This document shows, piece by piece, positions 39,295 through 64,000 of a stretch of DNA of 64,000 nt (its first letter is position 1; the number at the start of each line of letters is the position of its first letter). The stretch is taken from IMG/VR virus record IMGVR_UViG_3300032085_000337, positions 1 through 64,000 of that record, one strand, 5' to 3'. Origin of the DNA: a virus. The notes below the pieces were generated by a model. It was not told the origin of the DNA and searched no databases. It was given only the letters and a program-made list of their open reading frames with translations. Position numbers and translations under genes: made by a program.

Positions 39295-41565
39295 ATGATA
39301 AAAACAACACAATTCGAGCTTGAGGCACAGATGCAGGACCGTGGTTATGCTAGGTTCCTCAAGCAAATTGAAGCAGCCCGTAAGAACGAGGGCCAGAGCA
39401 ACACAGCTTATGGCCGTGAGCTTATCAAGGCTAACATTGATGATGTTGTTGTAGCCATTGGGGCTTTCATAGACACACAAGCAACCGTTAAGCGTAAAGC
39501 ACCAGCATCTATCCTGCTCAATGACCTTAACCTTGAAGCTGTGGCTTACTTGGCCCTCAAGACCATCGTGAACAGCCTTGGGCATGATGAAGCTAAGACC
39601 ACAGCCACAGCTATCAACATTGGCCTTGCAGTCTCCAACGCTATCAAACTGGCAGAGCTTAGTGCTGACAAAGAGAGCAAGGGCCTCGTTAAGCACATTG
39701 AGACAAGCGCAAAGAGAGCGCTGGGCAATGACAACAGCAAAGAGAAGGCTGTATCTGAGACATTGGCATTCTTTAACATGCAATCTGCTTGGTCTGTTGA
39801 GGATCAACTCAAGGTTGGTATCACCTTGGTTGAGCTTATCGCTGCGTCTGGCCTCATTGAGAATATCACTGTTGGTAGTGGCAAAAGCTCCTTTAACAAA
39901 CTAGTCCCTACAGATAAGACTATGGAGATGGTTGAGGTGATGAACTTATGCCCTGAGTTCGCCCCAGTCTACCTTCCGATGATAGTAGAGCCTAAAGACT
40001 GGGACACTGATGGCAATGGTGGTTACCTTACACTCCGCCAACCTCTTGTTAAGACACGCTTTGAGGGGCACACAGAGGCCCTTCAGGGGGCTGACTTGTC
40101 TTCTGTGCGTCAGAGCATCAATATCATCCAACAGACCGCTTGGAAGGTCCACACAGGGCTTCTCAGTATCGCTCAGAGGGCCTTTGATGATGGCTTGGAC
40201 GTAGACTGCTTCCCATTCAACTACAAAGACGACCGCCCTAAGCGCACAAGCATCCGTGTAGGGGCTACTACAGTGTTATCGCTGGCTGAGGAGTTCAGAG
40301 GGCACGAGGCTATCTATTTCCCTCACAACATGGACTGGAGGGGCCGTGTGTACCCAATGGTTGATGGCCTATCCCCACAAGGTAATAAACTGGCTAAGTC
40401 GCTCCTCTCTTTTGCTGAAGGTAAACGTATCACGGGTGGCGCTGAGAACTTCTTGGCTATCCACATCGCCAATGAGTTCGGTAAGGACAAGCTGTCCCTT
40501 GGTGATCGTGTAGCTTGGGTCTTTGAGAATGAAGATAAGATCGTTGAGGCTGCTAATGACCCTTTTGGGCCTAACAAAGACTTTTGGCTCAATGCTGACA
40601 GCCCTTGGGGCTTCCTTCGTGGCTGCTTAGAGTGGGCTGGCTACTGTGCTGACCCGGAGGACTTCCTTAGCACCCTGCCAGTAGCCTTTGATGGCTCTTG
40701 CTCTGGTCTCCAGCACTTCTCTGCGATGTTCAAAGATGAAGTTGGTGGCCGTGAAGTGAACCTTTTACCTGACCTAGACCGCCAAGACATCTACAGTGCC
40801 GTCAAAGAGGCCGTGGAAGGGGTACTACAAGCCTCTGATGACGCTTTGGCTACACAGTGGCTTAAATCAGGACTTATGGGCCGTAGCCTCTTTAAAACGC
40901 CCACAATGACCTATGGCTACTCTTCTGAAGTTCCGGGCATGACTGATCAGATCAAAGCTTACGTTAAGGATAGCGGGAATGATGCCTTTGCTAAAGATGA
41001 GTTGTTTGTAGCTTGTAATTATCTTGCTAAGATCACTTTCGCAGAGATAGAAAACATCGTGGTCAAAGCTGCTGAAGCTAAAACATGGCTCCAAGCTTGT
41101 GTCAAAGGCAAGCAGGAAGCTGCTCAATGGACTACACCTGATGGGATGGTTGTTGTGCAGAAGTACAAAGTGCGTAAATCTAAGCAACTCAACATAATGG
41201 TAGAGGGCGAACGTATTCGCTCACGCTATGACGTACCTACAGACGCTGTAGACAGCCGTAAGATGGCCTCTGCTATCGCTCCTAACGTGATCCACAGCCT
41301 AGACGCTGCACACATCCGTATGGTTGCTCTAGCTGCCTCTGGTGAGCAGATGCACAGCCTTGCGATGATCCACGACAGCTTTGGTTGTCACGCTGCTGAT
41401 GCTGGCAGGTTCTTCAACATCATTCGTGAGCAGTTCGTGGCTCTTTACAGCGGAGATGTAGCTGAGATGCTTAATGCAGAACTCTCTGGCGGGTCTGTAG
41501 AGCTTCCTACAATGGGTACTTTGGACCTTGAGGGCATTATTGATACTGACTACTCCTTCGCCTAA
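39295..41565 (+). CDS. T7-like single-subunit DNA-directed RNA polymerase
   Basis: DWRGRVYP, PQG, motif A FDGSCSGLQH, motif B RSLFKTPTMTYGY, PNVIHSLDA, motif C IHDSFG. Confidence 0.95.
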   Translation: MIKTTQFELEAQMQDRGYARFLKQIEAARKNEGQSNTAYGRELIKANIDDVVVAIGAFIDTQATVKRKAPASILLNDLNLEAVAYLALKTIVNSLGHDEAKTTATAINIGLAVSNAIKLAELSADKESKGLVKHIETSAKRALGNDNSKEKAVSETLAFFNMQSAWSVEDQLKVGITLVELIAASGLIENITVGSGKSSFNKLVPTDKTMEMVEVMNLCPEFAPVYLPMIVEPKDWDTDGNGGYLTLRQPLVKTRFEGHTEALQGADLSSVRQSINIIQQTAWKVHTGLLSIAQRAFDDGLDVDCFPFNYKDDRPKRTSIRVGATTVLSLAEEFRGHEAIYFPHNMDWRGRVYPMVDGLSPQGNKLAKSLLSFAEGKRITGGAENFLAIHIANEFGKDKLSLGDRVAWVFENEDKIVEAANDPFGPNKDFWLNADSPWGFLRGCLEWAGYCADPEDFLSTLPVAFDGSCSGLQHFSAMFKDEVGGREVNLLPDLDRQDIYSAVKEAVEGVLQASDDALATQWLKSGLMGRSLFKTPTMTYGYSSEVPGMTDQIKAYVKDSGNDAFAKDELFVACNYLAKITFAEIENIVVKAAEAKTWLQACVKGKQEAAQWTTPDGMVVVQKYKVRKSKQLNIMVEGERIRSRYDVPTDAVDSRKMASAIAPNVIHSLDAAHIRMVALAASGEQMHSLAMIHDSFGCHAADAGRFFNIIREQFVALYSGDVAEMLNAELSGGSVELPTMGTLDLEGIIDTDYSFA

Positions 41566-41569
41566 AGCT

Positions 41570-41713
41570 AAAAACCCCCACTATAGAGAAAGAGGCCTTC
41601 AGGTAATTCTGGGGGCCTTTTCTTTGTGGGACGGCCCCTTTCAGGGACCATTTATGAGTGCTAGAAACCCTTATAAATAAGGCATCTCCAAAAACTACTC
41701 GTATAGAGGAAGA
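41570..41713 (+). promoter_or_regulatory. Two candidate phage-RNAP promoters
   Basis: AAAAACCCCCACTATAGAGAAAGA (41570-93) and AAAAACTACTCGTATAGAGGAAGA (41690-713), 18/24 identical, T7-like TATAG core. Confidence 0.55.
41590..41626 (+). terminator. Rho-independent terminator after the RNAP gene
   Basis: AGGCCTTCAG-GTAATT-CTGGGGGCCT followed by TTTCTTT. Confidence 0.75.
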
Positions 41714-41971
41714 AACCTCAACACTACCCAGCCGTTCTGGGTTATCAAACGGGGCACGAAGAGCTGTGAGACTTAAAAGTTACACATGACCTCTCCTTCT
41801 ACTACCCTGCTTAAAGCTGACAATGGTGTTAGCTGAAGGCCTGTAGTAGAAGACACTACCTTAAGAAAACCCAATACTATGGGGGTAAGGGGGCACTCTA
41901 AGCTATAAGAACTTAAAGTTACACATAAGTTCCCCTTAAGCATACTATAGTACACAAAAGGAACCAATAAG

Positions 41972-42166
41972 ATGATACAAGAAGCACTAGACACCATTAT
42001 GTACATGGATGAGGAAGACACTCAGCGCTACCTTCTGGTCCTCCTTGAGCGAGACCCTGAGCTATTCTATTCTATTCATAATGAGATTTTGCAATTAGAC
42101 TTCCTAAACGATATGCGGGAAGAAGAGCACAATGGCTACCCAATGTACCCGGAGCTAAGCCGATGA
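41972..42166 (+). CDS. Hypothetical acidic protein
   Basis: 64 aa, AAGGA RBS. Confidence 0.6.
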   Translation: MIQEALDTIMYMDEEDTQRYLLVLLERDPELFYSIHNEILQLDFLNDMREEEHNGYPMYPELSR

Positions 42167-42348
42167 GTAAGATGACTATCTCATTTGTAGCTGTATCAGC
42201 TTCAACAGGCTTAATGCTCTGGGATTATGCAATGTCACAGCCTTCTGTTGGCTTAATGTTGCTACCAGCCTTCTTTAGTGGTGGCTATATGGCAATTGCA
42301 GCAGCACACCTACTTGAACTAATTAAACAAAATAACAAAAAGGACTAA
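42163..42348 (+). CDS. Small two-TM membrane protein
   Basis: 61 aa hydrophobic, ATGA overlap. Confidence 0.6.
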   Translation: MSKMTISFVAVSASTGLMLWDYAMSQPSVGLMLLPAFFSGGYMAIAAAHLLELIKQNNKKD

Positions 42349-42419
42349 ACAGATGAAATATTATGTACTCCCAGATGGCACAGTGACCTTTAAGCGTAAA
42401 GACTGTGCGGAATACGACA

Positions 42420-43985
42420 ATGACTGAGATTACCAGACAGCCTTGTCCAACATGTCCTAGTAGCGATGCTTTCGCCTATAACACTGATGGCTATGGTGTC
42501 TGTTTCTCATGTGGTAGTTCATATCCTAAAAAGGGCGTTAAGTATTCTGAGGAAACACTGGCGCTCTACCCTTTAGGTGATAGTAGCTATGACAACTATG
42601 AGCCTGAGCCTTCACAAGAGGACGCTAAATACATTAGCATCCGTGGTATCACTAGTGAGACTATGGAGCACTATGGTGTAAAAACCGTAGTCTCACACTC
42701 AGGTGAGCCTGTAAGCCAGTCCTATGTTTACCCTTCAGGGTCTACAAAGACACGCAAGTTCCCTAAGTCCTTCACAGCTACTGGTAAGATGGATGAACTC
42801 TATGGAATGAACTTGTTCACTCGTGGTAGTTCTAAATCAGTCACCATAGTAGAAGGAGAACTAGATGCTCTAAGCGCTTGGCAGATGCTAGGTGGCGTAG
42901 GCAACCGCTACATTAACCCTGTAGTTTCACTACCATCAGCTAATCCATCTAAAACCTTTTGGGAAAACGTAGTCCCTTGGTTAGATGGCTTTGAGAAGAT
43001 TATTCTCTCTGTAGACGCTGATGGACCGGGTGATGCTGTTGCTCAAAAGATAAACAACATCTTCCCTAAGAAGGTCTTCAGGGTAGACCACAGCACCTAC
43101 AAGGACGCTAACGAGTTCCTACAGGCTGGTAAGTCCTCAGAATACAAAAGTGCTTGGTTTAACGCCCAGCGCTTTATGCCTGACAACATCTTGCATAGTT
43201 CTGAAGACCTCCTAAAGCTTTTTGACCACACACCAGATCATTCCTACGTCCCTACAGGCATCCCTGACTTTGATGCTAAGGCTATGGGCTTAATGCAGGG
43301 ACACCTAACAGTCTTTAAGGCCCCTACAGGGATCGGTAAGACCGAGCTTATGCGCTATCTTGAGTGGAACTTCCTTCAGCGTAACGTAAGTTTTGCTACT
43401 ATGCACTTGGAAGAGACTAAGCTCCGTAGTGTCTTAGGGTTAGTTTCATATGACCTGAAAGACAACTTGACCCGTAAGGATCTTGTTGAAGACAAAGGCA
43501 AGACTGAAGAAGTCCGTGAGAGCATTAAGAAACTTGGTGATAGCGATAACTACTACCAGTTCTTTATGAAAGATGGACAAACAGAGGATGACCTAATCGC
43601 TCAGATCAGAATGTTCAAAGAAGCTTATGACTGTAAGTTCGTAATGTTTGAGCCTATCCAAGATGCAGTTTCTACAGGCTCTGAGGAGAACAAAGAAGCT
43701 AAACTCGCTGAGTTGGCAGTTCGTCTCTCTAAGGTTGCTGCTGATCTAAACGTAGGTATTGTGACTATCGCTCACACTAATGACGATGGTGAAGTCAAAT
43801 ACTGCAAGATGATTGGCCAGCGTGCTTCTGTTATCGTAAGACTAGATAGAAACAAAGAAGCTGAAGACATCCAAGATCGTAACACTACACGCTTGGTTAT
43901 CGAAAAGAACCGTCCAACGTCTGAAGAGGGCTTTGCGGGTGAACTTTTGTTCAACATAGACACCTTCAACATGGAGGCACTATAA
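42420..43985 (+). CDS. T7 gp4-like primase-helicase
   Basis: CPTC..CFSC zinc finger, IVEGELDA, VDADGPG, APTGIGKT, EKNRP. Confidence 0.93.
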   Translation: MTEITRQPCPTCPSSDAFAYNTDGYGVCFSCGSSYPKKGVKYSEETLALYPLGDSSYDNYEPEPSQEDAKYISIRGITSETMEHYGVKTVVSHSGEPVSQSYVYPSGSTKTRKFPKSFTATGKMDELYGMNLFTRGSSKSVTIVEGELDALSAWQMLGGVGNRYINPVVSLPSANPSKTFWENVVPWLDGFEKIILSVDADGPGDAVAQKINNIFPKKVFRVDHSTYKDANEFLQAGKSSEYKSAWFNAQRFMPDNILHSSEDLLKLFDHTPDHSYVPTGIPDFDAKAMGLMQGHLTVFKAPTGIGKTELMRYLEWNFLQRNVSFATMHLEETKLRSVLGLVSYDLKDNLTRKDLVEDKGKTEEVRESIKKLGDSDNYYQFFMKDGQTEDDLIAQIRMFKEAYDCKFVMFEPIQDAVSTGSEENKEAKLAELAVRLSKVAADLNVGIVTIAHTNDDGEVKYCKMIGQRASVIVRLDRNKEAEDIQDRNTTRLVIEKNRPTSEEGFAGELLFNIDTFNMEAL

Positions 43986-44004
43986 TATGAAGGAATAAAA
44001 TAAT

Positions 44005-45846
44005 ATGAAAATAGTATTCGATCTAGAGACCGATGGGCTTTTAGACAAGCTAACCAAAATCCATGTCTTCTCATGGTCTGTGGTTGGCTCTGATGTAGTC
44101 CACAGCACTAACGACCTCAGCACTATCCAAGAGGTTATGCAAAAGGCAACAACAGTTATAGGCCACAATATCGTATCCTTTGACCTTGCAGCCCTAGCGA
44201 TGTTCGACATCCACACAGATGCTGACATCATAGACACCCTTCCCCTTAGTTGGTACTTAGAACCTAAGCGTGTTCGACACGGCTTAGACCAATGGGGCGA
44301 GAGCTTGGGCATTAAGAAACCTAAGATCGACGACTGGGACAACCTGAGCTATGAGGACTACAAGCATCGCTGTGAGGAAGACGTAAGAATCAACCTCAAA
44401 GTCCTTGAGACCCTAGAGCGCAAGCTAAAGCGTCTTTATCGTGATGAGGGTGAGCAAAAGCGTCTCACTGACTATCTGACCTTTAAGATGCAGTGTGCTA
44501 GGGACCAAGAGGTCTATGGTTGGCGCTTGGATGTCCCAAAGGCCCAAGACTTACAACAAACACTACAACAAATGAAGGAGAGTTCACAAGAACAGCTATC
44601 AGCAGCTATGCCACAAAAGCCTATTACAAAAGTAATGAACCCGCCAAAAGTGATGCACAAGAAAGATGGATCACTCTCTGCTAGAGGCGAGGCTTGGCAA
44701 CAACTGCTTAAAGACAACTTTATGCCAGCATCTACAATGCAGCCTATGACTATCTTAGTAGGCCATGACGCTGGCAACCCTAATAGCCATGAGCAAGTTA
44801 AAGATTGGCTCTATGACCTTGGTTGGAAGCCCCAGACATTCAAATATGTCCGTGGTGATAACTTTGGTGAAGAGCGTAAAATCCCACAGCTACGGGATGG
44901 CTCTGAGCTATGCCCAAGCGTACTTGCACTTGCTGAGGTAGAACCTTCGATCAAACTACTAGAAAACCTGACAGTCACTAGTCACAGACTTGGTGTTGTT
45001 AATGCTTATCTGGAGTGTGAGGTCGATGGTTGGCTTTCAGCAGGTATCTCAGGCCTCACTAACACCTTCCGCTTCAAACATAGGAAGCCTCTGGTTAACC
45101 TCCCCGCTGTCGATAAGCCTTGGGGAAAAGAACTTAGGGGTTGCTTGATTGCTCCAGAAGGTGAAGTGCTTGTTGGTTGCGATATGGTTTCCCTAGAGGA
45201 CACCACTAAGCGACACTACATGCAGCCTATTGACCCTGACTATGTTGCAGAGATGCAAAGGGATGGCTTCGATCCACACTTGGATTTGGCTAAACATGCT
45301 GGTGTAGTAACCCAAGACCAGATTGACCAGCACAACGCTGGCACTATCAACCTTGGGAACATCCGTAAGGGCTACAAGGCTGCTAATTATGCCTCAGTTT
45401 ATGGGGTAGGCCCAGCGACCCTCTCAAGGGCCACAGGTCTATCTCAAGGTGAAGCTAAGAAGCTCATTGAGGCATATTGGGGTCGCAATTGGGCAGTTCA
45501 AAAGATAGCTGAAACAAGAAAGGTAAGAGAAATAAACGGTGAAGCTTGGATACTCAATGAGGTCTCAGGCTTCTGGCACAGCCTACGTTCCGATAAGGAC
45601 CGTTGGTCAACCACAAACCAAAGCACTGGCGTCTACTGCTTTGACCAATACGTTATGTTGGTTAAGGCTGCTGGTGAGAAGGTCATAGGTCAATTCCATG
45701 ATGAGGTCGTGGTTGCTACTGATGACTACAAGAGAACAGAGCGTGTGCTTCTTGAGTGCAAGGGCAAGCTCAACGAAAAGATTAAACTTAACGTCCCACT
45801 TGGAATTGATTATGCAGTGGGCAACAACTATGCGGAGATACACTAG
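44005..45846 (+). CDS. polA: Family A DNA polymerase with 3'-5' exonuclease
   Basis: FDLETDG, GHNIVSFD, CEEDV; motif A DMVSLE, motif B RKGYKAANYASVYG, motif C FHDE. Confidence 0.93.
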   Translation: MKIVFDLETDGLLDKLTKIHVFSWSVVGSDVVHSTNDLSTIQEVMQKATTVIGHNIVSFDLAALAMFDIHTDADIIDTLPLSWYLEPKRVRHGLDQWGESLGIKKPKIDDWDNLSYEDYKHRCEEDVRINLKVLETLERKLKRLYRDEGEQKRLTDYLTFKMQCARDQEVYGWRLDVPKAQDLQQTLQQMKESSQEQLSAAMPQKPITKVMNPPKVMHKKDGSLSARGEAWQQLLKDNFMPASTMQPMTILVGHDAGNPNSHEQVKDWLYDLGWKPQTFKYVRGDNFGEERKIPQLRDGSELCPSVLALAEVEPSIKLLENLTVTSHRLGVVNAYLECEVDGWLSAGISGLTNTFRFKHRKPLVNLPAVDKPWGKELRGCLIAPEGEVLVGCDMVSLEDTTKRHYMQPIDPDYVAEMQRDGFDPHLDLAKHAGVVTQDQIDQHNAGTINLGNIRKGYKAANYASVYGVGPATLSRATGLSQGEAKKLIEAYWGRNWAVQKIAETRKVREINGEAWILNEVSGFWHSLRSDKDRWSTTNQSTGVYCFDQYVMLVKAAGEKVIGQFHDEVVVATDDYKRTERVLLECKGKLNEKIKLNVPLGIDYAVGNNYAEIH

Positions 45847-46362
45847 ATGGCAAAAGTTAAAACAAAAGAAGTCGCAATGACAGGTTTCCTTGAGTATGCA
45901 CGGGTCTTCCCCGGTAACATGGATGCAAACATGGATTACCATGAGAAAACACAAGGACAGTACAACGTAAACTTTTATCCTGAGACCACAGAAGGCTTTG
46001 AGGCTTTCTTTGATGCTGGTGCGCCTGTGTCAGCTATGGGCCATGATACAATCAAGGTCGGTGACCCTGAGATTGCTACAGGTAAGTTCCTGAAGCTTAA
46101 GCGTCCTAACAAGCACCCTTCAGGTATTGAGGACTTTGGCGGTGCTCCTGTAGTCTTTGACTTCCGTGAGGGTGAAAGCCTTAAGAAGTGGTCAATGGAA
46201 GAAGATGGCGAGCTTGGTAATGGCACTAAAGCTACTGTTAAGGTTTCAATCTATGGTGAAGGCCCCCGTGCATCTATCCGTTTGGAGAAGATTGCAGTTC
46301 ACGAACTCGTAGAGTTTGATGGTAACACAGGAGGTGCTTCCTCTAACAAGGACAAGTTCTAA
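45847..46362 (+). CDS. Probable single-stranded DNA-binding protein
   Basis: Follows polymerase; ELGNGT.A.V motif; C-terminal Phe. Confidence 0.7.
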   Translation: MAKVKTKEVAMTGFLEYARVFPGNMDANMDYHEKTQGQYNVNFYPETTEGFEAFFDAGAPVSAMGHDTIKVGDPEIATGKFLKLKRPNKHPSGIEDFGGAPVVFDFREGESLKKWSMEEDGELGNGTKATVKVSIYGEGPRASIRLEKIAVHELVEFDGNTGGASSNKDKF

Positions 46363-46661
46363 TGGACGGGTCTGAGTTCTGTGGCCACTGTGGTAGTCTT
46401 TATGAGGACGGGTGTGTTTGTGGTGAGTGTAGCTTTGACGCTGTAGACAAACCCTTTCACTACAACCACTCTGGCGGCATTGAGTGCATTGAGTACATCA
46501 AGCAGGTCTTAGGTAAGGAAGGCTTTATAGCTTACTGTCGTGGTAATGTTATGAAGTACAACCACCGGGCCTTCTACAAGGGTAACCCAAATGAGGACAT
46601 GGCGAAAGCTGAACAATACCTCAAGTGGGCTAATGAAGCTCTTGGGGAGGTCTATAAATGA
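46362..46661 (+). CDS. DUF3310 (T7 gp1.7-like nucleotide kinase) protein
   Basis: DAVDKPFHY..GIECIEYI..GNVMKY..R..KG..EDMAKA..YL. Confidence 0.85.
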   Translation: MDGSEFCGHCGSLYEDGCVCGECSFDAVDKPFHYNHSGGIECIEYIKQVLGKEGFIAYCRGNVMKYNHRAFYKGNPNEDMAKAEQYLKWANEALGEVYK

Positions 46662-47248
46662 AAGTCCTAGTCGCCTGTGAATACTCTGGGCGGGTTCGTG
46701 ATGCTTTCATCAAGAGGGGGCACGAGGCTATGTCTTGTGACCTCCTTGAGACTGATGTTAGTGGCCCACACTACACTGGGAATGTCTTAGATATCTTAGG
46801 GCAAGGTTGGGACATGCTTATTGCGCACCCACCTTGCACTTACCTAGCCAACTCTGGTGTAAGTTGGTTACACAAGGATGAGGCTAGGTGGGGCCTACTT
46901 GATGAAGGTGCGGCTTTCTTTAAGGCTCTCCTTGAGGCAAACGTGGACAAGGTGGCTATTGAGAACCCTATTATGCACAAGTACGCTAAGGAGCGCATTG
47001 GTGGTGTTAGGCAAACTCAGGTCATACAGCCTTGGATGTTTGGTCACACTGAGCAGAAGGCTACATGCTTGTGGCTCAGGGGCCTACAACCACTGCTTCC
47101 CACAAACAACGTAAAGGAAGATATGATGAAACTAGATAAAAAAGAACGTCAGCGCCTGCACTACTTACCACCCTCTAAAGATCGGTGGAAACTTAGGTCA
47201 ACAACCTATCAAGGAATAGCAGACGCAATGGCTGAACAGTGGGGGTAG
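46658..47248 (+). CDS. Compact C5 DNA cytosine methyltransferase-like protein
   Basis: VLVACEYSG, AHPPCT, IENP, KATCLW, RSTTYQGIADAMAEQWG. Confidence 0.75.
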   Translation: MKVLVACEYSGRVRDAFIKRGHEAMSCDLLETDVSGPHYTGNVLDILGQGWDMLIAHPPCTYLANSGVSWLHKDEARWGLLDEGAAFFKALLEANVDKVAIENPIMHKYAKERIGGVRQTQVIQPWMFGHTEQKATCLWLRGLQPLLPTNNVKEDMMKLDKKERQRLHYLPPSKDRWKLRSTTYQGIADAMAEQWG

Positions 47249-47249
47249 T

Positions 47250-48307: not shown

Positions 48308-48309
48308 TC

Positions 48310-49319: not shown

Positions 49320-49352
49320 ATACAACACAACATAACATAAGGACTACACAAC

Positions 49353-54526: not shown

Positions 54527-54541
54527 CCAAAGGAGGCATAA

Positions 54542-55732: not shown

Positions 55733-55883
55733 GCCAACAGGCACAATCTACTCACGCAAGACCCTTGCTGGTCTAAAGGCAGCGTATGGTGGAAACAAGA
55801 AAGAGCTAGAGGCCCAAGGTTGGCTTTTCGTTAATCTTGAGGAACCTAAGAAGAAGGAAGAAACCGTTGCAGATGATAAGTAA
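55716..55883 (+). CDS. 55-aa basic hypothetical protein
   Basis: AGGAGG RBS before ATG 55716; bridges portal and protease genes. Confidence 0.55.
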   Translation: MWMIRRPTGTIYSRKTLAGLKAAYGGNKKELEAQGWLFVNLEEPKKKEETVADDK

Positions 55884-56511: not shown

Positions 56512-56622
56512 CCAGTTTGGGGCGGAATGCTCTAATATCACCCTACCAACCCAAAACCCTATAAGACTATTTGTGCAGTGGAATACTGCCTTTGTGTCTC
56601 TATCATCTCTGAAAGGATGAAC

Positions 56623-57726
56623 ATGACTATTGAAGTAAATGAAGCCCTTGAAGCTATCAAGGCACAAGTCTCTGAGAAGTTTGAAGGTGTAGCTGTTAAG
56701 GCTGACCTTGAGGCACTCACAGAAACCAAAGCAGACGTAGCATCTGTGGTTGAATTGAAAGGCCACCTTGAAGCTCTTGAAGCCAAGTTCGACGCTATGC
56801 CTGCACCATCTATCCTTAAAGCAACCCAAGAAGAGGTTAAACTTATGAACTCAGTATCCGAAGGCTTTGCAAAGTCATTTGAAGCCACAGGCAAGAACCA
56901 TCTTGATGTAGAGCTTAAGGCTATCACTCAGGGTCGTGACGTTACTGGTGGTAAAGTTGAAACATTCGGTCTCATTGGCTCAATGTTCAATGGCAACCCA
57001 ATTCGCTCACTTGCTTCTGTTATGAACACCACAAGCAAAGCCATTGACCTGCCAGTTCGTGCAGGCAACCACGGTGCTGCTAACGCTGGTGCAATTAAGA
57101 ACGTAGCTGACAACGGCAACGCAAGCGTGGGTGTTACACAGTTGATCGTCCAAACTTTCAACGCACGTTCAGATGTCACTATTGAAGCTGTCAACGACAT
57201 TCCGGGATTTGACCAATTCTGGGCACAAGACATGCTTGCTGAAGTAGCCTCTATTGAAGCTGCTGAGCATGTTACTGAGCTTGCAACTATGGATGTTGGT
57301 AAAACAGCCGCATCAACATCTGTTATCACTTGGGACGAGATCGTTGATCTTTACTACTCAATTGAGCCAGCGGCTCGTGTTGGTGGTTCCTTCATGTTCT
57401 CAAGCGAAGTAATGGCGCAACTCCGTACACTTTCTAACAGTGGTACAGGTTCTGAGCTTATGTTCGACCCACAGCTTGGTGGCTTCCGTCTGTTCGGTGC
57501 TCCAGTGTACGAAAACGGCTACATGGCTGCGCCTGCTGCTAACGCTGTTACAGGTGCATTCGGTGACTGGAAGAAGGGCCTTGTGATTGCACAACGTGCT
57601 TCAGCGTCTCTTGGTCGCTACGACCAGACTGTTCCCGGTAAGTATGTCTATTACGCTGAAATGCGTTCAGGTATCTCTAACTGGGATAACTCAGCCCTGA
57701 AGACACTTAAAATGGCTGCTGTTTAA
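56623..57726 (+). CDS. HK97-fold major capsid protein
   Basis: N-terminal coiled delta domain; LFGAPV, FGDW; after the protease gene. Confidence 0.9.
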   Translation: MTIEVNEALEAIKAQVSEKFEGVAVKADLEALTETKADVASVVELKGHLEALEAKFDAMPAPSILKATQEEVKLMNSVSEGFAKSFEATGKNHLDVELKAITQGRDVTGGKVETFGLIGSMFNGNPIRSLASVMNTTSKAIDLPVRAGNHGAANAGAIKNVADNGNASVGVTQLIVQTFNARSDVTIEAVNDIPGFDQFWAQDMLAEVASIEAAEHVTELATMDVGKTAASTSVITWDEIVDLYYSIEPAARVGGSFMFSSEVMAQLRTLSNSGTGSELMFDPQLGGFRLFGAPVYENGYMAAPAANAVTGAFGDWKKGLVIAQRASASLGRYDQTVPGKYVYYAEMRSGISNWDNSALKTLKMAAV

Positions 57727-57740
57727 ACCTTAACCTTGTT

Positions 57741-57767
57741 GGCCCCTGAGCACTACGCTTGGGGGTC
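57741..57767 (+). repeat. Conserved hairpin copy 1 (after MCP)
   Basis: GGCCCCTGAGCA-CTAC-GCTTGGGGGTC. Confidence 0.75.
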
Positions 57768-57791
57768 ACCTCAACTGTAAGGAGAGAGCAT

Positions 57792-58337
57792 TTGACCTAC
57801 CAAGTAACTATCCCAGCTACTGCATCACTTGTGCCTGTAGCTGATCTAAAGACCCACCTGCTGTTGTTCGGTGACACTTCCTATGACACTGAGCTACAAG
57901 ACATCCTTCTTACTGCTGAGGGTTTTGTTTCTGACTTCCTAGGGGACTTTCTAGCTACCACAACAGTCAGGAAGAACATTGTAGCCTTTGGTGATATTGA
58001 GCTACCCCACAAATCACCCACTAACATTGTGGTGTCTTATTGGGACACAAGCAACACTGCACAAGTTTGGCCTTCAAGTAACTATGTGGTTGACACCTCT
58101 GATGTTTACCCAGTTATTATCTTCAACACTAACCCTTCTGGGTTCTCGACAAAGTTCGCTAACAAAGGCTTTGTGACCTACGACACAGTGCTGGACCCAG
58201 TTACAGCTAAGATTAAACACGCAGTGCTTCTTATTGCCGCTGAACTGTTTGAGAACCGCAACAACTCCTCAGAAAAGAAGATGGAGAAGGTTCAGCTTAC
58301 AGCTATGAGACTGATGCAATCTCTGCGGGGGTGGTAG
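57792..58337 (+). CDS. Head-tail connector (HK97 gp6/SPP1 gp15-like)
   Basis: LKTHL...D..L, IKHAVLLIAAELFENR; AAGGAG RBS with TTG start. Confidence 0.85.
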   Translation: MTYQVTIPATASLVPVADLKTHLLLFGDTSYDTELQDILLTAEGFVSDFLGDFLATTTVRKNIVAFGDIELPHKSPTNIVVSYWDTSNTAQVWPSSNYVVDTSDVYPVIIFNTNPSGFSTKFANKGFVTYDTVLDPVTAKIKHAVLLIAAELFENRNNSSEKKMEKVQLTAMRLMQSLRGW

Positions 58338-58338
58338 T

Positions 58339-58671
58339 ATGCTAACATTCCCAAAGAAGGCTGAGTTCTACACAAAGTCCGACACTTACAATGATTATGG
58401 GGAACCAATAGCATCAGGGGCGCTTTCGTTCACTACAGGTGTTCGCATGACCACTTTATCGTTTAAGGATATGGTTAAGGCCACTGGAACTATAGACACC
58501 AGTCAGTTCTTTGTGTTCACTCGAAAGAACCCTAACACCCTAGCTGTTGTGGTTGGGGACTTCATTAAGGTTGATGGTCAGTCTTTTGAGGTTATAGGTA
58601 TTGACCCTATTTATGGCAAACGCTCAGACATTACGTTCCTTGTGGACCTAATTGAAGACCCTGTGGTTTAA
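58339..58671 (+). CDS. Head closure protein (SPP1 gp16-like)
   Basis: NDYGEP, IKVDGQSFEVIGIDP; position. Confidence 0.75.
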   Translation: MLTFPKKAEFYTKSDTYNDYGEPIASGALSFTTGVRMTTLSFKDMVKATGTIDTSQFFVFTRKNPNTLAVVVGDFIKVDGQSFEVIGIDPIYGKRSDITFLVDLIEDPVV

Positions 58672-58680
58672 GGAGGTAAC

Positions 58681-59049
58681 ATGCAACTAACTAAAGACTT
58701 CGCAGCTAAACTAGCGACAGCTACCTCTCCAACACGGGCCTTCCCAGCTATCTCTAAGTCCACTGACCTACCTGCTGTAGTCTACTCTGGCAGGGGTGGT
58801 ATTCGTGAGGCATTTTATAGTGGCTCTTACGGACTGCGTGAGACACGCTTTCAGGTTGATGTTTACGCTAAGACCTACACTGAGGTATCAACCCTAAAGG
58901 ACAGCATCCTAGCGGCCTTTCACGGCTTCTCAGGGGCTATGGGTTCCTCTACTGTAAGCAGGTCAACTGTAGACAACACCTTAGAAACATTTGATGATAG
59001 TGGTGAGAAGATTTACCGCATAATCATTGAGATCACTTTACTTGACTAA
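58681..59049 (+). CDS. Tail terminator (DUF3168-like)
   Basis: LPAVVY, RFQVDVYAKTY. Confidence 0.8.
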   Translation: MQLTKDFAAKLATATSPTRAFPAISKSTDLPAVVYSGRGGIREAFYSGSYGLRETRFQVDVYAKTYTEVSTLKDSILAAFHGFSGAMGSSTVSRSTVDNTLETFDDSGEKIYRIIIEITLLD

Positions 59050-59073
59050 CAACCTCCCTAGAAAGGAAACACT

Positions 59074-59541
59074 ATGGCTTCTGTAACAGGTCGTGCCGCA
59101 GGCTTTATCGCCACACTTTACTACTCAGCTACTGTTGATACTGGTAAAACTATCCTATCAATGGCCACAACAGCCGCATCTGGCAATGAGGTTCTTGATG
59201 TAGCTGACATTGGTTCGCTCAATAAGACCCGCACAGTCATTGACATCCCTGTTTATGGTGATGATGTTAAGGGTAAGCTACCGGGCCAAGCAGACCCCGG
59301 CTCCTTTGACTTCAATGTTACCCTAAACCTTGATGACGCTATCCACACTGCTCTGCGTGATGATGATGGTTTGACTATCCACACCTTTGTGATTAAGTTT
59401 ACACAGGGTGCTAACATCACTTATGCAGTCTTTGATGGTTATGTTGGTGATGCAACAGTCTCACAGCCTATTGATGACCGTATCCAGATGGATGTGTCAG
59501 TAGCTCGTGCTGGTGCTATCACATGGCTTGACGCAGCCTAA
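59074..59541 (+). CDS. Major tail tube protein
   Basis: PGQADPGSFDF, FDGYV; position after the terminator. Confidence 0.8.
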   Translation: MASVTGRAAGFIATLYYSATVDTGKTILSMATTAASGNEVLDVADIGSLNKTRTVIDIPVYGDDVKGKLPGQADPGSFDFNVTLNLDDAIHTALRDDDGLTIHTFVIKFTQGANITYAVFDGYVGDATVSQPIDDRIQMDVSVARAGAITWLDAA

Positions 59542-59547
59542 TCAATC

Positions 59548-59574
59548 GGCCCCTGAGCATTGTGCTTGGGGGTC
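59548..59574 (+). repeat. Conserved hairpin copy 2 (after tail tube)
   Basis: GGCCCCTGAGCA-TTGT-GCTTGGGGGTC; differs from copy 1 only in the four central bases. Confidence 0.75.
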
Positions 59575-59598
59575 GCCTTATTTAATGAAAGAGATAGA

Positions 59599-59850
59599 AT
59601 GACAAAACCAAAAACCTTGATTGATGACGCACTGCTACAGGCTATGTTGGACCAATCACAATTTGCAGCCCCGCAAGAAGAGGAGTTCTGGTACAGCCGA
59701 GGGATGCAAAAGAGATATGTGTTCGAGATTGGCGCTAAGTTGCTAGTGTCTGAGGAGATGACACCACTAGAGGCCATTGAGATGGCTCAGGAATACGTTG
59801 ACACATTCTATGAAACAACAATGTCACCCCAAGGGTGGAAGAAGGATTAA
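59599..59850 (+). CDS. Hypothetical protein
   Basis: 83 aa acidic ORF between tail tube and chaperone genes. Confidence 0.6.
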   Translation: MTKPKTLIDDALLQAMLDQSQFAAPQEEEFWYSRGMQKRYVFEIGAKLLVSEEMTPLEAIEMAQEYVDTFYETTMSPQGWKKD

Positions 59851-59855
59851 ACTAA

Positions 59856-60167
59856 ATGGCTAAACTAGGTAAAGTGAAAAGCAGCAAACCACTTAGTATT
59901 GGGATTGATGGTGTCTTCATTAAGAATATGCCAGCCAAACGGATGCAAGACTTGTTCGGCAATATTGATGAGCGCCTAAAGTCAGAGCCTGAAGGTGTTG
60001 TAGTTGAGCTTTTCAATGAGCTAATCTGTGACGACAGTGGGGATGTGTTCGAGGATGTAGCTACTTATGAAGCTATCCTTGATGTTCTTTCTATCAAAGA
60101 TATTCGTGACATCATGAAAGCAATTGCTGAAACAATGAACCCGAGTGCTAAAGACTTGGGAAAGTAA
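59856..60167 (+). CDS. Tail assembly chaperone (lambda G-like)
   Basis: Ends ...LGK* on a GGGAAAG slippery site. Confidence 0.8.
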   Translation: MAKLGKVKSSKPLSIGIDGVFIKNMPAKRMQDLFGNIDERLKSEPEGVVVELFNELICDDSGDVFEDVATYEAILDVLSIKDIRDIMKAIAETMNPSAKDLGK

Positions 60168-60562
60168 AGACACAGTGGTTATCTCAAGTTAGAACCTTTA
60201 TGCTTGCCAATGGTTCTAGCTTGTCCACTGTGGATGCTCTTCCACTAGGAGACGCTAAGGCCCTCTATGTCACTCTACAGGGTGGCCTGTGGGGGCCTTA
60301 TGGTGAGGCACACAAGACTTATGCACTGTACTGCTCCCAACACCTTCAGAAAGAGGTTGCTGTGGCTGTAGCTCAAGGTAAGAAGTACAAGCCTACGCAG
60401 CCTTTGGACTTCCACGAGATGTTCCCAGTCTATGATGACTTCCACTCTCTCGGACAGGGTAAGTTGAGACGAAAGCAAGCCAAGAGAGACAGTGTGGCGT
60501 TGAAGGCCCTTTCTGTACTACCAGCAGAGGGCGCACCAAAGTGGCTGAAGGAGCTAACGTAA
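60158..60562 (+). CDS. Tail assembly chaperone frameshift extension (lambda T-like)
   Basis: -1 frame from GGGAAAG (60158-64) is open into ORF 60200-60562. Confidence 0.8.
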   Translation, partial: GKVKTQWLSQVRTFMLANGSSLSTVDALPLGDAKALYVTLQGGLWGPYGEAHKTYALYCSQHLQKEVAVAVAQGKKYKPTQPLDFHEMFPVYDDFHSLGQGKLRRKQAKRDSVALKALSVLPAEGAPKWLKELT

Positions 60563-61035
60563 TGTCTACAAAGGAAATTGAGGTAAAGGGACTAAGGGAG
60601 CTTGAAAAGGCTCTCTTGGCACTACAGAAGGAATACGGTGGCAAGGCTGGAGCACAGGCTATGCGGCCTGCTGTAACTGCTGCCATTAAGCCACTAAAGC
60701 AACAGGTCATTCAAGACACACCTGTTGATAGTGGGGCTTTGCAGGCATCTATTAAACAAACTGTTGGTGCAGTGACTAAGGACATGTTGTCCCACTCCAG
60801 AAACCACTACAACAACACAACCGTAATTGCAGGTCGTGTTGGTTACTTTGGAAACAAAGTCTACAAGAGGGCTATTTCTGTTGAGTATGGCACAATAGAT
60901 ATCGCAGCACAGCACAATCTAGAGAACGTATTCGACCGTGAAGCCAAGGGAATGGCTACAAGGTTTGGAAGTAAACTTGGGCCAGCTATCGAAAAGAAAG
61001 CTAAAGCTCTTCACAATAAACAAATGAAAGGCTAA
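60562..61035 (+). CDS. HK97 gp10-like tail completion protein
   Basis: IEVKGLRELEKAL, TPVDSGALQASI, VEYGT. Confidence 0.85.
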   Translation: MSTKEIEVKGLRELEKALLALQKEYGGKAGAQAMRPAVTAAIKPLKQQVIQDTPVDSGALQASIKQTVGAVTKDMLSHSRNHYNNTTVIAGRVGYFGNKVYKRAISVEYGTIDIAAQHNLENVFDREAKGMATRFGSKLGPAIEKKAKALHNKQMKG

Positions 61036-61039
61036 GTTT

Positions 61040-62980
61040 ATGGCAACGATAGCAAACCTATCAATTGGCCTCAGTGCCGACAGTGCAAAGCTCAAGAAAG
61101 ATTTAGATAAGGCTAGTAAGCAGTCTAAGCAATGGGCTAACAAGCAGAAGAAGCAGTTTAAGGGTGTAGCTGACTCAGTTAAGCTTATTGGTGCAGCAGT
61201 TGCAGGCATAAGCTTTGCTCAGTTTATCAGGGGGTCTATCCAGGTTTCCAAAGAGCTTAAGAACATGTCTAATCTTACTGGCGTTAGCTCCAGTGAGTTG
61301 CAACGTGTAACACCGTCCTTGGAGAGAGCAGGTCTTTCACTAGAGAAGTATGCTGACATCATTAAGGATGTTAACGACAAAACTCACGACTTCCTCCAGA
61401 CTGGTGGTGGTCCTATGAAGGACTTCTTTGAGACCATTGCCCCCAAGATTGGTATTACGGCAGATGCTTTTAAGGGGTTGTCTGGTAAGGATGCCCTACA
61501 GCTTTATATCTCCTCACTAGAGAAAGCTGGTCTGTCAACAGAGCAAATGACTTTCTATATGGAAGCTTTGGCTTCTGACAGCACTATGTTGCTACCACTA
61601 CTTAGGAACAACGCAGCAGGGATGGAAGAGTTTGCCCTTGCAGCAAACCAAGTGCTAAACCCTGAGACATCGCAATCTTTGATTAACATTGGCACTTCCT
61701 TTAGCACCCTTGGTAAGATCATTACCAACATGACGCTTAACGCCATTCAACCACTACTATCATTCATTGAGAAGGTGCTGGATGGTTGGAGGCAGATGAT
61801 CACTGATATGCCAGAGCTTGTCTACGGTATTGAGGCTATCGCAGCCGCTGTTGTTGGCTTAACCTTAGCTATGTTTGCTAACCCAATAACTTTGTGGATT
61901 GCTGCTATTTCAGCTTTGGTGGTTGGCGCCGGTTGGCTCTACTACAAATTCAAAGATGTTGCTGAGGCCGTAGGCGGGGCGGGCGAGTTGTTTACGCTCA
62001 TGGCTGATAGCGCCAAGTTCGAGATTGACCGTGTTATAGCATTTGGTGAGAAGCTTAAGCTAAAGATGCAGATGGTCTTCTTGCGTATTAAAGACGCTTG
62101 GACTGAGATGCTCAACACTATGCGCATGTCTTTTGCTAAGATGCTAGACAGCCTAGCTGAAGGCCCAATGGGTTCTTTGTTTGGCATGGAAGGTGGCAAT
62201 GAAGCTGCCGCTGGTGCAGCAAACAGTGCCGCCACAAATGCTAATATGGAGCAGTTCATTAAGCTTGGTTCTGCTCTCAAAGCAAACTCTGAGGCCCTTA
62301 ACGCAGTCAACCCGCACCTCAAGAAGATGAAAGAGGCTTGGGCTGGTGGCGAGCCTATGAAGGTTGAGGTGGAAAACCCACCCGGCGCAGACCTTACAAA
62401 AGGCGGAGACCTTGGCGCAGGTGCTGCTGGTGGTAGCAAGAAAACAGTTGACCCCAACTCCCCAGAAGGCTTGGCTAAACAGTTCGTTGAGACACTGAAA
62501 AGCAGCTTCTCTAATGCTCTGGCTACTGGTGACTGGAAGAGCTTTCTTGATACTGCTCTAGACACTTTGACTATGAGCATAATAACGTCCTTCACAGAGG
62601 GAATGTTTAAGCCTTTTGAAGACGCTCTTGGCAGTATGGTATCAGGCATGTTTAGTGGGGCAGGTGGCTTAGGTGGTGGAATAGGTAGCTTCGTTGGCTC
62701 TATCTTTGGTTTTGCAGAAGGTGGCATTGTGCCTACCACATCAACCTCAAAGTCTTATGCTGACAGTGTACCTGCGATGCTTCAACCCGGTGAGCTTGTG
62801 GTCCCCAAGGACCAAGTTGACAACTTTATGAATGGTGCTGTTGGTGGTGGTGGTGGTGGTACTTACAACCTCAACATCACAGGTGACGTAACAAGACAGA
62901 CACGTACACAAGTCTTGTCTATGATGGACGACATTGCTAATGGCGTAAACCGTCAAAACAAAGAAAGAGGCTCCCGTTAA
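61040..62980 (+). CDS. Tape measure protein
   Basis: 646 aa Ala/Gly-rich; ANPI; C-terminal FAEGGIV..DSVPAMLQPGELV. Confidence 0.92.
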   Translation: MATIANLSIGLSADSAKLKKDLDKASKQSKQWANKQKKQFKGVADSVKLIGAAVAGISFAQFIRGSIQVSKELKNMSNLTGVSSSELQRVTPSLERAGLSLEKYADIIKDVNDKTHDFLQTGGGPMKDFFETIAPKIGITADAFKGLSGKDALQLYISSLEKAGLSTEQMTFYMEALASDSTMLLPLLRNNAAGMEEFALAANQVLNPETSQSLINIGTSFSTLGKIITNMTLNAIQPLLSFIEKVLDGWRQMITDMPELVYGIEAIAAAVVGLTLAMFANPITLWIAAISALVVGAGWLYYKFKDVAEAVGGAGELFTLMADSAKFEIDRVIAFGEKLKLKMQMVFLRIKDAWTEMLNTMRMSFAKMLDSLAEGPMGSLFGMEGGNEAAAGAANSAATNANMEQFIKLGSALKANSEALNAVNPHLKKMKEAWAGGEPMKVEVENPPGADLTKGGDLGAGAAGGSKKTVDPNSPEGLAKQFVETLKSSFSNALATGDWKSFLDTALDTLTMSIITSFTEGMFKPFEDALGSMVSGMFSGAGGLGGGIGSFVGSIFGFAEGGIVPTTSTSKSYADSVPAMLQPGELVVPKDQVDNFMNGAVGGGGGGTYNLNITGDVTRQTRTQVLSMMDDIANGVNRQNKERGSR

Positions 62981-62993
62981 TTCGGGGGTCTTC
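62968..62993 (+). terminator. Hairpin at the end of the tape measure gene
   Basis: GAGGCTCCCG-TTAATT-CGGGGGTCTT; weak U tract. Confidence 0.45.
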
Positions 62994-63016
62994 CCCATTT
63001 TAACAAAGGATAAGAG

Positions 63017-63628
63017 ATGGCTTACACTTGGAGCGGACAACGTATTACAGCCCCTATTACAATATCAAGCAACCAACCTGAGTTTGTCACAGAGACTGCC
63101 AACCTTAAGAGGCTTGTAACTTCACAAGATGCCCAACGGTGGGAGCTTACGTTTGGACTAGAACCAACTACAGACGCTGGTGGACTATTTGTAGCTATGA
63201 CCTCCGCAGCGCAAGGTGTGCGCACAATGGTCGTGCCACAGATTTATAAGTCTGGGTCAGTAAACGAATGTGCTACTACAGCAACAGTTGATGCTATCGC
63301 AGCCGCTGGTGCTAGTTCTGTAACAGTTAGCCTTGGCACAGGTGATATTGGTAAAGTAATCTACAAAGGTACTTTCATTAAGTTTGCAGGACACACTAAG
63401 GTTTATATGGTTACAGCAGACGCTACAGCCGTAGACAACACCACAGAGGCACTGGCTACCCTATCGGTTTACCCTGAGCTTAGGGCTGGTGTAGTTGTGT
63501 CTGAGGTTGTTTCTTATTTAGATGATGTTGACCTTTCTTATTGGCTAGGTGAGCAACTGCGTGGCATAAGTTATGCCGATGGCATTGTAGCCTCAGTGGG
63601 TAGTGTTGCTGTTCTGGAGGCTATCTGA
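63017..63628 (+). CDS. Distal tail (Dit-like) protein
   Basis: Directly after TMP; AQRWEL, G.FIKF.GH.KVYMV, YP.LR. Confidence 0.65.
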   Translation: MAYTWSGQRITAPITISSNQPEFVTETANLKRLVTSQDAQRWELTFGLEPTTDAGGLFVAMTSAAQGVRTMVVPQIYKSGSVNECATTATVDAIAAAGASSVTVSLGTGDIGKVIYKGTFIKFAGHTKVYMVTADATAVDNTTEALATLSVYPELRAGVVVSEVVSYLDDVDLSYWLGEQLRGISYADGIVASVGSVAVLEAI

Positions 63629-64000
63629 TGAGAGGGCTTTCTGCTACATCTTTAGCTATACTAGGTGAGGATAGGCTTAAGGCTTTCCTTATGGTTAAGT
63701 TGGACTTCCCCTCAGTGTCGTATTACTTCACAGACTATGGGCGTGATATTGACTTTGGGGGTAACACATATTCATCTGGCAGTGGCGTGATGGATTTTGA
63801 GCCACCAAGGTTGTCCTCTACAGTTGACAGAGAAGCTTATCGCCTAAGTATCTCTGACCACAACAACACCTTCCAGAACCTTTTTAGGCTTGGTGCAACA
63901 GGGTCTGATGTTACAATCTACCTTGTGCTAGTTGGCTCAGGTGGTCCTGAGTTGGGTGCGGATGATGTTATAGTGGCCTATAAAGGTCGCATTGATGAGA
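63628..64000 (+). CDS. Baseplate hub-related tail protein, truncated at the window end
   Basis: ATG overlapping the upstream TGA; MRGLSATSLAIL...YYFTDYGRDIDFGGNTY; open to 64000. Confidence 0.6.
   Translation, partial: MRGLSATSLAILGEDRLKAFLMVKLDFPSVSYYFTDYGRDIDFGGNTYSSGSGVMDFEPPRLSSTVDREAYRLSISDHNNTFQNLFRLGATGSDVTIYLVLVGSGGPELGADDVIVAYKGRIDE

Follow-up and report, generated by a model that had tools for sequence, protein, structure and literature searches.

Can the RNA polymerase and replication genes of a T7-like phage occur in one genuine genome with the head and tail genes of a siphovirus? The question is raised by virus record IMGVR_UViG_3300032085_000337 of IMG/VR, whose positions 1 to 64,000 are analyzed here (the window). 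An original prediction, made from the window's letters, described a siphovirus at 39295-64000 in which homologues of the T7-type single-subunit RNA polymerase (RNAP), gp4, gp5, gp6 and gp3 run without a strand switch into HNH, terminase, portal, protease, major capsid protein, tail tube and tape measure genes, and it doubted the assembly at 47900-48900. We find that this hybrid architecture is real, and that the record containing it is a mis-join of two phages. With a probability of roughly 85%, the second of these phages is an uncultured marine siphovirus of ~33-34 kb, coded on one strand and equipped with a T7-type RNAP, which uses the transcription and cohesive-end (cos) scheme proposed below and was mis-joined to a co-occurring strain of roseophage SIO1.

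Linkage of replication and structural modules

The siphovirus runs from ~38964 through the end of the window to base 73002 of the contig, and this is most of its ~33-34 kb genome. All 43 of its open reading frames (ORFs) are on the plus strand, and the genes named by the original prediction were located with Pfam or PHROGs on that strand (Table 1).

IMG/VR searches with the large terminase subunit (TerL) yielded six close contigs, and those with RNAP nine, with one contig in both lists. When the partner gene was sought in 10 related records, the three longest were found to carry RNAP and TerL together on a single strand; the remaining seven are fragments of 5.9-19.7 kb. The first of the three, G001 (33,438 bp), has an RNAP with 79% and a TerL with 88% amino acid (aa) identity and is collinear with 39307-66692; its ends overlap by 134 nucleotides at 99% identity, which gives a 33,304-bp circle. 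The second and third, G006 (33,371 bp) and G007 (23,429 bp), each share 79% aa identity in RNAP and 86% in TerL, and are collinear with the siphovirus to approximately contig base 69241 and to window position 58409, respectively. Matches to the 43 ORFs number 31 in G001 and 35 in G006. At the border between the modules, alignment is unbroken over 47252-49391 in G001 and over 47257-49698 in G007, spans that include the 47900-48900 stretch doubted by the original prediction. Because three independent IMG/VR contigs have the same linked order, the association of replication and structural modules did not arise during assembly. With ~33-34 kb, the siphovirus is a genuine genome that stands alone.

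A chimera with roseophage SIO1

The original prediction missed that the IMG/VR record is a chimera. The record comprises 73,002 bp, is classed as linear and has a CheckV completeness of 100. Its ORFs form three blocks, on the plus strand at 1-11 kb, the minus strand at 11.5-35.2 kb and the plus strand at 36-73 kb. A tRNA scan of the window found zero genes, and GC content is 0.43-0.49 throughout the window, so composition does not tell the two phages apart.

Window positions 100-20000 share 98.1% nucleotide identity with SIO1 (AF189021) over 94% of that stretch, and 35000-38978 share 91% with SIO1 8277-12025. SIO1 itself is a complete 39.9-kb phage, and SIO1-type relatives stand alone at 38.9-40.2 kb. 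None of seven SIO1 structural proteins matches the siphovirus, G001 or G006. In a self-comparison, contig bases 1-99 equal the stretch that is common to both phages at the join, save for one base, and the last 794 contig bases (72209-73002) are an 82% nucleotide copy of 37933-38723, which contains ThyX and what comes after it. The layout reads as two loops sharing one node, namely an SIO1 strain of ~38.9 kb and a second phage of ~34.3 kb made up of 38964-73002, ~140 nucleotides that lie outside the record, and the shared 99 nucleotides.

Sequencing depth was taken as per-contig word depth in the Logan contigs of four runs (X1, X2, X3 and X8) over 34001-54000. Depth is even along the siphovirus within a run (20-22 in X1 and 39-52 in X2). 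In X1, possibly the sample from which the record was assembled, exact contigs have depths of 197-259 on the SIO1 side versus 20-22 on the siphovirus side, an approximately tenfold difference. The ratio is reversed in X3 (0-10 versus 16-28) and in X8 (mostly 1-55 versus 90-245, leaving out the bin over a variable accessory gene). Furthermore, the X1 contigs that reach 38963 carry on into an SIO1-like variant of window positions 100-129.

A reading of the entire 73 kb as a single genuine genome with two replication modules and both podovirus and siphovirus virion modules would agree with the record's being one contig scored as complete, but is scarcely credible given that positions 1-38963 are a phage known to be complete without the rest, that relatives of each half are found alone (at 33-34 kb and 38.9-40.2 kb), that the same 99 nucleotides stand at the join and at the record start, and that the depth difference in X1 is reversed in two other runs. 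Positions 1-38963 are a separate phage on the strength of the SIO1 identity, the 99-nucleotide repeat and ThyX copy, the two-loop layout, the depths, and the stand-alone relatives that share no structural proteins, and the record is a mis-join. A record scored as 100% complete is thereby flagged as a two-phage chimera, which matters for users taking it as a reference.

The SIO1 strain in the window is nearly complete and is circularly permuted relative to AF189021. Its stretch from ThyX/gp12 to the primase-helicase gene is ~600-700 nucleotides shorter than that of SIO1, and SIO1 12026-12826 has no counterpart. A 38-nucleotide direct repeat (95% identical) occupies two intergenic regions of the SIO1 part, at 24802-24839 and 35285-35322. 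The repeat sits on the side of the minus-strand structural genes and may be a regulatory element of SIO1.

A predicted transcription scheme

The RNAP of the siphovirus is 32% identical to T7 gp1. It keeps the residues that align to T7 D537, D812, K631, Y639, R627, H784 and H811, whose functional roles in T7 we take to be established, and it ends in SFA. With its catalytic residues conserved, the phage polymerase looks active.

The sole site within 38700-52800 that matches the sigma-70 consensus at 12 of 12 positions is upstream of the RNAP gene, and is predicted to be an early promoter for the host RNA polymerase. A second type of promoter, presumed to be used by the phage polymerase, is represented by two copies of a motif, the first (AAAAACCCCCACTATAGAG) directly 3' of the polymerase stop codon and the second (AAAAACTACTCGTATAGAGG) at 41690, with a predicted early terminator between them. 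The core of the motif resembles the T7/SP6 promoter core CACTATAG, which is the SP6 form. Eight loci were examined, which reduce to four distinct sequences plus that of the window, and the motif is present at the same position in four of five distinct relatives, although the flanks have diverged. The strict motif is found nowhere else in the siphovirus, G001 or G006. A loose pattern (AAAACN7TATRG) is not enriched over the window (7 found versus 8.5 expected), so the case for these promoters rests on position and conservation and not on count. Also, a search of the whole phage for a promoter family (20-mers repeated with at least 17 matches) revealed only the repeats within a 492-aa tail gene and chance triplets.

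These elements suggest the following scheme. The host RNA polymerase would initiate at the sigma-70 promoter, read the phage RNAP gene and halt at the hairpin terminator just behind it. The phage polymerase would then initiate at one or two of the conserved T7/SP6-like promoters (41570 and 41690) and would proceed through the replication and HNH genes and across the joined cos site into terS and the lysis, head and tail genes, before stopping at a terminator-like hairpin after the last tail gene; the predicted unit would span 41.6 to 69.3 kb. A different hairpin with a T run is located at the same place after the last tail gene of G006. Because virion ends would interrupt this unit, the late genes would be reachable only after the ends join. 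Late transcription in lambda likewise needs joined ends.

Alternatively, the phage polymerase might serve the replication genes only, and the host polymerase, possibly modified, might read the structural and lysis genes. Xp10 uses a mixed host/phage polymerase strategy of this sort. This division of labour would fit the observation that, in the siphovirus, G001 and G006 alike, neither terS nor TerL nor the head genes have a phage-promoter motif upstream, and the predicted cos site would part the two modules on virion DNA. However, the structural genes have no strong sigma-70 site in front of them (the sites in 52000-64000 all score 9 of 12, and shuffled sequences contain more of them), no terminator-like hairpin of more than 6 pairs was found from 41700 to the tail tube gene, and the genes all lie on one strand with short gaps. 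We therefore consider the alternative unlikely, yet the strongest rival to a single phage-polymerase unit.

Two further elements were noticed. The leader that separates the RNAP start codon from the predicted early promoter contains two 72-nucleotide direct repeats that are 83% identical (39096-39166 and 39190-39261). Directly after the major tail protein gene is a 13-bp GC-rich hairpin with no clear T run (59547-59575), which may be an RNA-stabilizing or attenuating element.

Genome ends and packaging

The place that the original prediction doubted is of interest for another reason, which it also missed. The linear contig G006 starts at the equivalent of window position 48796 and stops at the equivalent of 48709, and its two ends map 17 nucleotides apart in G007, a contig whose sequence there does not differ from that of G006. 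In the window, endonuclease I ends with a TGA at 48305-48307 and the HNH gene has an in-frame GTG start at 48310; the gap is thus the 2 nucleotides originally described. The HNH gene in turn ends 111 nucleotides ahead of terS. According to the available text of PMC3592412, many phages encode an HNH endonuclease beside the cos site and terminase genes. The G006 ends, the HK97-type domains of TerL and the HNH gene beside the terminase genes together point to a cos site in the HNH-terS spacer, and the genome probably has cohesive ends that are cut there. In this scheme, the HK97-type terminase would package DNA from concatemers, aided by the adjoining HNH nuclease. Assemblies that cross the spacer are to be expected, because replicating DNA is circular or concatemeric. 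Thus 47900-48900 probably includes a physical genome end and not an assembly break.

Non-cohesive ends, produced by headful packaging or terminal repeats, would imply that G006 ends in the spacer by chance. G001 does assemble into a circle, and no read-level ends are visible in the data, which are Logan contigs and cannot reveal molecule ends. Nevertheless, this explanation is improbable, because both ends of a 33.4-kb genome fall inside one 111-nucleotide spacer, 17 nucleotides apart, and because TerL has the HK97-type domains PF03354 and PF20441 with an HNH gene adjoining.

Another explanation, named by the original prediction as its own refutation, is that the siphovirus is itself a mis-join at 48.3-48.8 kb, with a T7-like podovirus fragment that extends from RNAP to endonuclease I on one side and an HK97-like siphovirus on the other. 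This has in its favour that the border falls exactly between two functional modules and that G006 ends there, but can be set aside, because G001 and G007 come from other samples and align unbroken across the border, G006 connects the tail genes to RNAP by the other way round the circle, depth is equal on either side in four of four runs, and HNH-cos-terS is the usual gene order for HK97-type phages.

Assessment

Several points count against the overall reading given at the outset. The phage is known here from sequence alone, and its virion, host and transcripts are unobserved. The promoter motif has just two strict copies, one relative (L102) has only a degenerate form of it, and it was not found upstream of structural genes in the siphovirus, G001 or G006, so that the late genes may use the host polymerase or an unrecognized class of promoter. 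The cos assignment hangs on the ends of a single contig. If X1 is the source sample, the chimera call uses the same data as the assembly, with X3 and X8 being independent, and the closing ~140 nucleotides beyond contig base 73002 lie outside the record. Finally, the GenBank phage database used for the megablast, RNAP and TerL searches may omit records very near to the window.

A more far-reaching proposal, which is tentative, is that the siphovirus represents a new and probably family-level lineage of Roseobacter-group siphoviruses that acquired T7-type transcription independently of Xp10, and in which a single promoter cluster drives a ~28-kb unit crossing the cos site. If so, lysis, head and tail genes would be expressed only after the injected DNA circularizes or forms concatemers, a built-in timer not described for T7-like systems. 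The short polymerase (756 aa) and its simple predicted promoter could also be tried as an orthogonal expression tool.

Gene content of the siphovirus

Gene calls (Table 1) were made with Pfam and PHROGs for 41 of the 43 ORFs, the two others being 51616-51846 and 71486-71689.

Table 1. Features of the siphovirus and of the joined SIO1 part. Positions are those of the window, or of the full contig where indicated.
Feature	Position	Strand	Evidence
SIO1 strain (podovirus), not siphovirus	1-38963	.	91-98% nucleotide identity to SIO1, Pfam, depth
SIO1 part, primase-helicase	869-2437		Pfam
SIO1 part, family A DNA polymerase (PolA)	2647-4389		Pfam
SIO1 part, ribonucleotide reductase	7319-9334		Pfam
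SIO1 part, T7-type portal	26866-28647	-	Pfam
SIO1 part, T7-type TerL	28707-30251	-	Pfam
SIO1 part, ThyX	37933-38601		Pfam
99-nucleotide stretch common to both phages, 3' end of gp12-like gene, chimeric join point	38865-38963	+	Self-comparison
Predicted early promoter for host RNA polymerase, TTGACA-17-TATAAT with TG	39032-39060	+	12/12 consensus
Single-subunit T7-type RNAP, 756 aa	39295-41565	+	PF00940 4e-93, PF14700
Predicted phage-RNAP promoters, AAAAAC-N6-TATAGAG	41570-41590, 41690-41711	+	Position, conservation
Hairpin with T run, predicted early terminator, between the motif copies	41592-41622	+	-20.4 kcal/mol
Fused primase-helicase (T7 gp4 type)	42405-43985	+	Toprim_2, DnaB_C
PolA	44005-45846	+	PF00476 5e-16
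Possible phage ssDNA-binding protein, 171 aa	45847-46362	+	ESM Atlas lead only
DUF3310 protein, 99 aa	46362-46661	+	PF11753 2e-18
PHROG family 757 gene ('DNA methyltransferase')	46658-47248	+	phrog_757 4e-58
5'-3' exonuclease (FEN type)	47250-47930	+	PF02739, PF01367
Endonuclease I (T7 gp3-type Holliday junction resolvase)	47912-48307	+	PF05367 1e-50; 55% to T7 gp3
HNH endonuclease (HK97 gp74-like position)	48310-48711	+	PF01844 6e-9
HNH-terS spacer, predicted cos site	48712-48822	.	G006 contig ends
Small terminase subunit (terS), weak match	48823-49319	+	phrog_83 1e-7; PF05119 3e-4, below cut-off
Second HNH	49353-49697	+	PHROGs
Endolysin	49990-50517	+	PHROGs
Holin-like gene	50519-50875	+	PHROGs
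Metallophosphoesterase	52084-52848	+	PHROGs, Pfam Metallophos
TerL	52715-54526	+	HK97-type PF03354, PF20441
Portal	54542-55732	+	PF04860
S78 prohead protease	55837-56511	+	PF04586
HK97-type major capsid protein	56578-57726	+	PF05065
Head-tail adaptor, head closure, tail terminator	57759-59049	+	PHROGs
Lambda-like tail tube (major tail protein)	59074-59541	+	PF16460
Tape measure, 646 aa	61040-62980	+	phrog_2854
Distal tail protein	63017-63628	+	phrog_1302
J-like central fibre	contig 64210-67305	+	PHROGs
Tail-fibre assembly protein	contig 68844-69263	+	PHROGs
Terminator-like 9-bp hairpin with T run, after last tail gene	contig 69274-69305	+	
ThyX of the siphovirus	contig 72134-72880	+	

The primase-helicase is 24% identical to T7 gp4 and 29% to the protein in the SIO1 part, and PolA is only 22% identical to T7 gp5. 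The protein proposed as a single-stranded DNA-binding protein had no match in the Pfam and PHROG searches, so the call stands only as far as a lead from the ESM Atlas, in which its neighbours carry PF24083/PF10991 (score 0.96). The supposed gp1.7-like gene is better described as a DUF3310 gene, whose product matches only the C-terminal part of T7 gp1.7 (39% over 66 aa).

Both terminase genes are present in the order originally proposed, the terS match being weak, but they are not adjacent: 3.4 kb intervenes, and 49353-52848 also contains small ORFs. Four small ORFs separate the major tail protein from the tape measure. A further tail protein is cut by the window end, and the tail module goes on to contig base 69263, with a 492-aa tail-region protein between the J-like fibre and the tail-fibre assembly protein. 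After the tail module the contig encodes MazG, a 605-aa ribonucleotide reductase (RNR), a collagen-like protein and ThyX. Sheath, integrase and repressor families had no match among the scanned ORFs. The tail tube, 646-aa tape measure, distal tail protein and J-like fibre, with no sheath match, are those of a siphovirus and predict a long non-contractile tail, which would measure roughly 100 nm at the usual ~0.15 nm per tape measure residue.

Within the 492-aa tail gene, contig positions 68060-68560 contain four copies of a 20-nucleotide core, GAGCACCGCTTGGGAC, that are ~160 nucleotides apart. The repeats indicate a tandemly repeated protein domain.

Variable genes among strains

In three of the four runs, contigs were found that skip 46666-47261, the region of the phrog_757 gene (a 596-nucleotide skip, with 4 other letters instead), and neither G001 nor G006 has this gene. 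The phage population is polymorphic for its presence. The DUF3310 protein is also absent from G001 and G006.

The RNR of the siphovirus (contig 69615-71432) is only ~24% identical to SIO1-type RNR. The same place is occupied by an SIO1-type RNR in G001 and G006 (~72% aa identity) and in G007 (~70% nucleotide identity to window 7311-9333). This looks like the replacement of a nucleotide-metabolism gene by a non-orthologous one.

Mobile HNH genes differ between strains; the second HNH protein has a 60% aa match in G006 and a weak one in G001 (41% over 61 aa). In addition, 0.8 kb of extra sequence separates TerL from portal in G006 (4567-5390) and in G007, and both contigs have one in-frame TAG inside the TerL match.

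Host and habitat

DNA nearly identical to 39001-49000 occurs in runs from 10 studies, with at least half of the sampled words present in eight runs, and nearly all of the runs with such DNA carry marine, seawater, aquatic or viral metagenome labels. Among cellular proteins, the major capsid protein has a single named relative, a prophage protein of Pseudorhodobacter turbinis (48%), and the nearest named RNAP outside the siphovirus clade is from a Shimia sp. contig (38%). The DNA shared with SIO1 (ThyX, the gp12-like gene and the 99-nucleotide stretch) suggests that both phages infect Roseobacter-group hosts. Together, the SIO1-shared genes, the SIO1-type RNR of the relatives, the similarity of PolA to that of roseophage CRP-6, the P. 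turbinis capsid protein and the Shimia RNAP point to a host in the Rhodobacterales, probably in the Roseobacter group. The suggestion of a marine alphaproteobacterial host is thus supported indirectly, by the shared DNA, the PolA and capsid relatives and the marine runs. The lineage is widespread in marine metagenomes and probably has its hosts in the Roseobacter group, which is important ecologically.

Comparison with known phages

As originally suggested, the lineage is little described. A megablast search with 39295-64000 against 50,697 GenBank phage records returned only two matches, of 93 and 55 nucleotides. The best GenBank phage matches are 33% for RNAP (roseophage CRP-125 and other Autographiviridae), 36% for TerL (Methylophilaceae phage P19250A) and 51.9% for PolA (roseophage CRP-6), and the major capsid protein is at most 26% identical to that of any GenBank phage over more than 70% of its length. 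In a collection of 5.8 billion proteins, the first 27 RNAP rows are 61-98% identical and all metagenomic, and later rows are at most 38% identical, with 800-890 aa. In a FastTree phylogeny of 120 RNAPs, from which three rows shorter than 700 aa had been removed, polymerases of the siphovirus type form one clade (25 tips, support 1.0, stem 1.26), and the Xp10 RNAP is neither inside this clade nor sister to it.

RNAP in siphoviruses is called very rare in the available parts of PMC8541194 and PMC9145550, which name Xp10, Xop411, OP1, phiL7, CP1, BUCT603, Colwellia phage 9A and KASIA. Our literature search, which did not extend to supplements and many subscription journals, turned up no described siphovirus from the sea or from roseobacters that has a T7-type RNAP; the available part of a paper on CRP-822-type roseosiphophages makes no mention of RNA polymerase (PMC12629253).

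Xp10, correctly cited by the original prediction as a siphovirus with a T7-like RNAP, and its relatives (Xipdecavirus; Xop411, OP1, phiL7, CP1 and BUCT603) likewise have a long tail, an HK97-type head, a lambda-like tail, an HNH gene near the terminase, a T7-family single-subunit RNAP and their own replication genes, according to the available text of PMC9145550 and PMC8541194. However, Xp10 matches only four of the 43 siphovirus proteins (RNAP 34%, exonuclease 29%, HNH 49% and endolysin 40%), with no structural protein matched at E 1e-3, and genome-wide similarity to Xipdecavirus is lacking. The Xp10 map has two converging arms, of which the leftward one is the replication arm and closes with RNAP, in the phiKMV order, and Xp10 encodes separate primase and helicase genes, and endonuclease VII instead of endonuclease I. 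In contrast, the siphovirus has RNAP first on a single strand of 33-34 kb, compared with the 44.4 kb of Xp10. Colwellia phage 9A and Shewanella phage KASIA are also reported to be siphoviruses with a single-subunit RNAP, but in these the RNAP gene lies ahead of the structural module and is oriented away from the replication module (PMC8541194 and PMC9145550, in the parts available; these two phages are set apart by description only).

The Autographiviridae (T7, SP6 and phiKMV, and marine members such as roseophages CRP-125 and CRP-113) share with the siphovirus an early RNAP gene with conserved catalytic residues, a promoter core resembling CACTATAG, a fused gp4-type primase-helicase and one coding strand, and T7 additionally shares endonuclease I (55% to gp3) and a piece like gp1.7. 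The siphovirus lacks their T7-type portal, capsid, tail tube and internal core proteins, and tblastn matched none of the T7 structural genes in it. Instead, its head is of the HK97 type, its portal belongs to PF04860 and its capsid protein to PF05065, and it encodes a tape measure and a J-like fibre. Its RNAP is ~100 aa shorter than those of the GenBank members and at most 33% identical to them, and the gene order behind RNAP is unlike that of T7.

HK97-type cos siphoviruses, such as mEp235 and P19250A, have the same layout of HNH, terS, TerL, portal, S78 protease and capsid genes, with TerL 34-36% identical, and the siphovirus has their packaging order (TerL with PF03354/PF20441, PF04860, S78 and PF05065). 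It differs in placing the lysis cassette between terS and TerL, and we know of no HK97-type cos siphovirus that carries a T7-type RNAP or replication module. The podovirus SIO1 has in common with the siphovirus ThyX (80% aa and 82% nucleotide identity), the gp12-like gene (96% aa over 52 aa), a 67-aa ORF (67%), MazG (45%) and endonuclease I (56%), but no RNAP match was found in the SIO1 part of the contig.

To judge from these sequence comparisons, no described genus fits the siphovirus, and it is a new lineage of the rare but known kind that includes Xp10, Colwellia phage 9A and KASIA. It illustrates how modules pass between T7-like and HK97-like phages, and it gives evidence of genes recently exchanged with SIO1. 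The known siphoviruses with a T7-type polymerase infect Gammaproteobacteria, and the new lineage would be an independent, compact case of 33-34 kb. It stands out by a one-strand genome with RNAP first, a predicted single promoter cluster, a probable cos site between the replication and packaging modules, and the evidence of recent exchange with SIO1.

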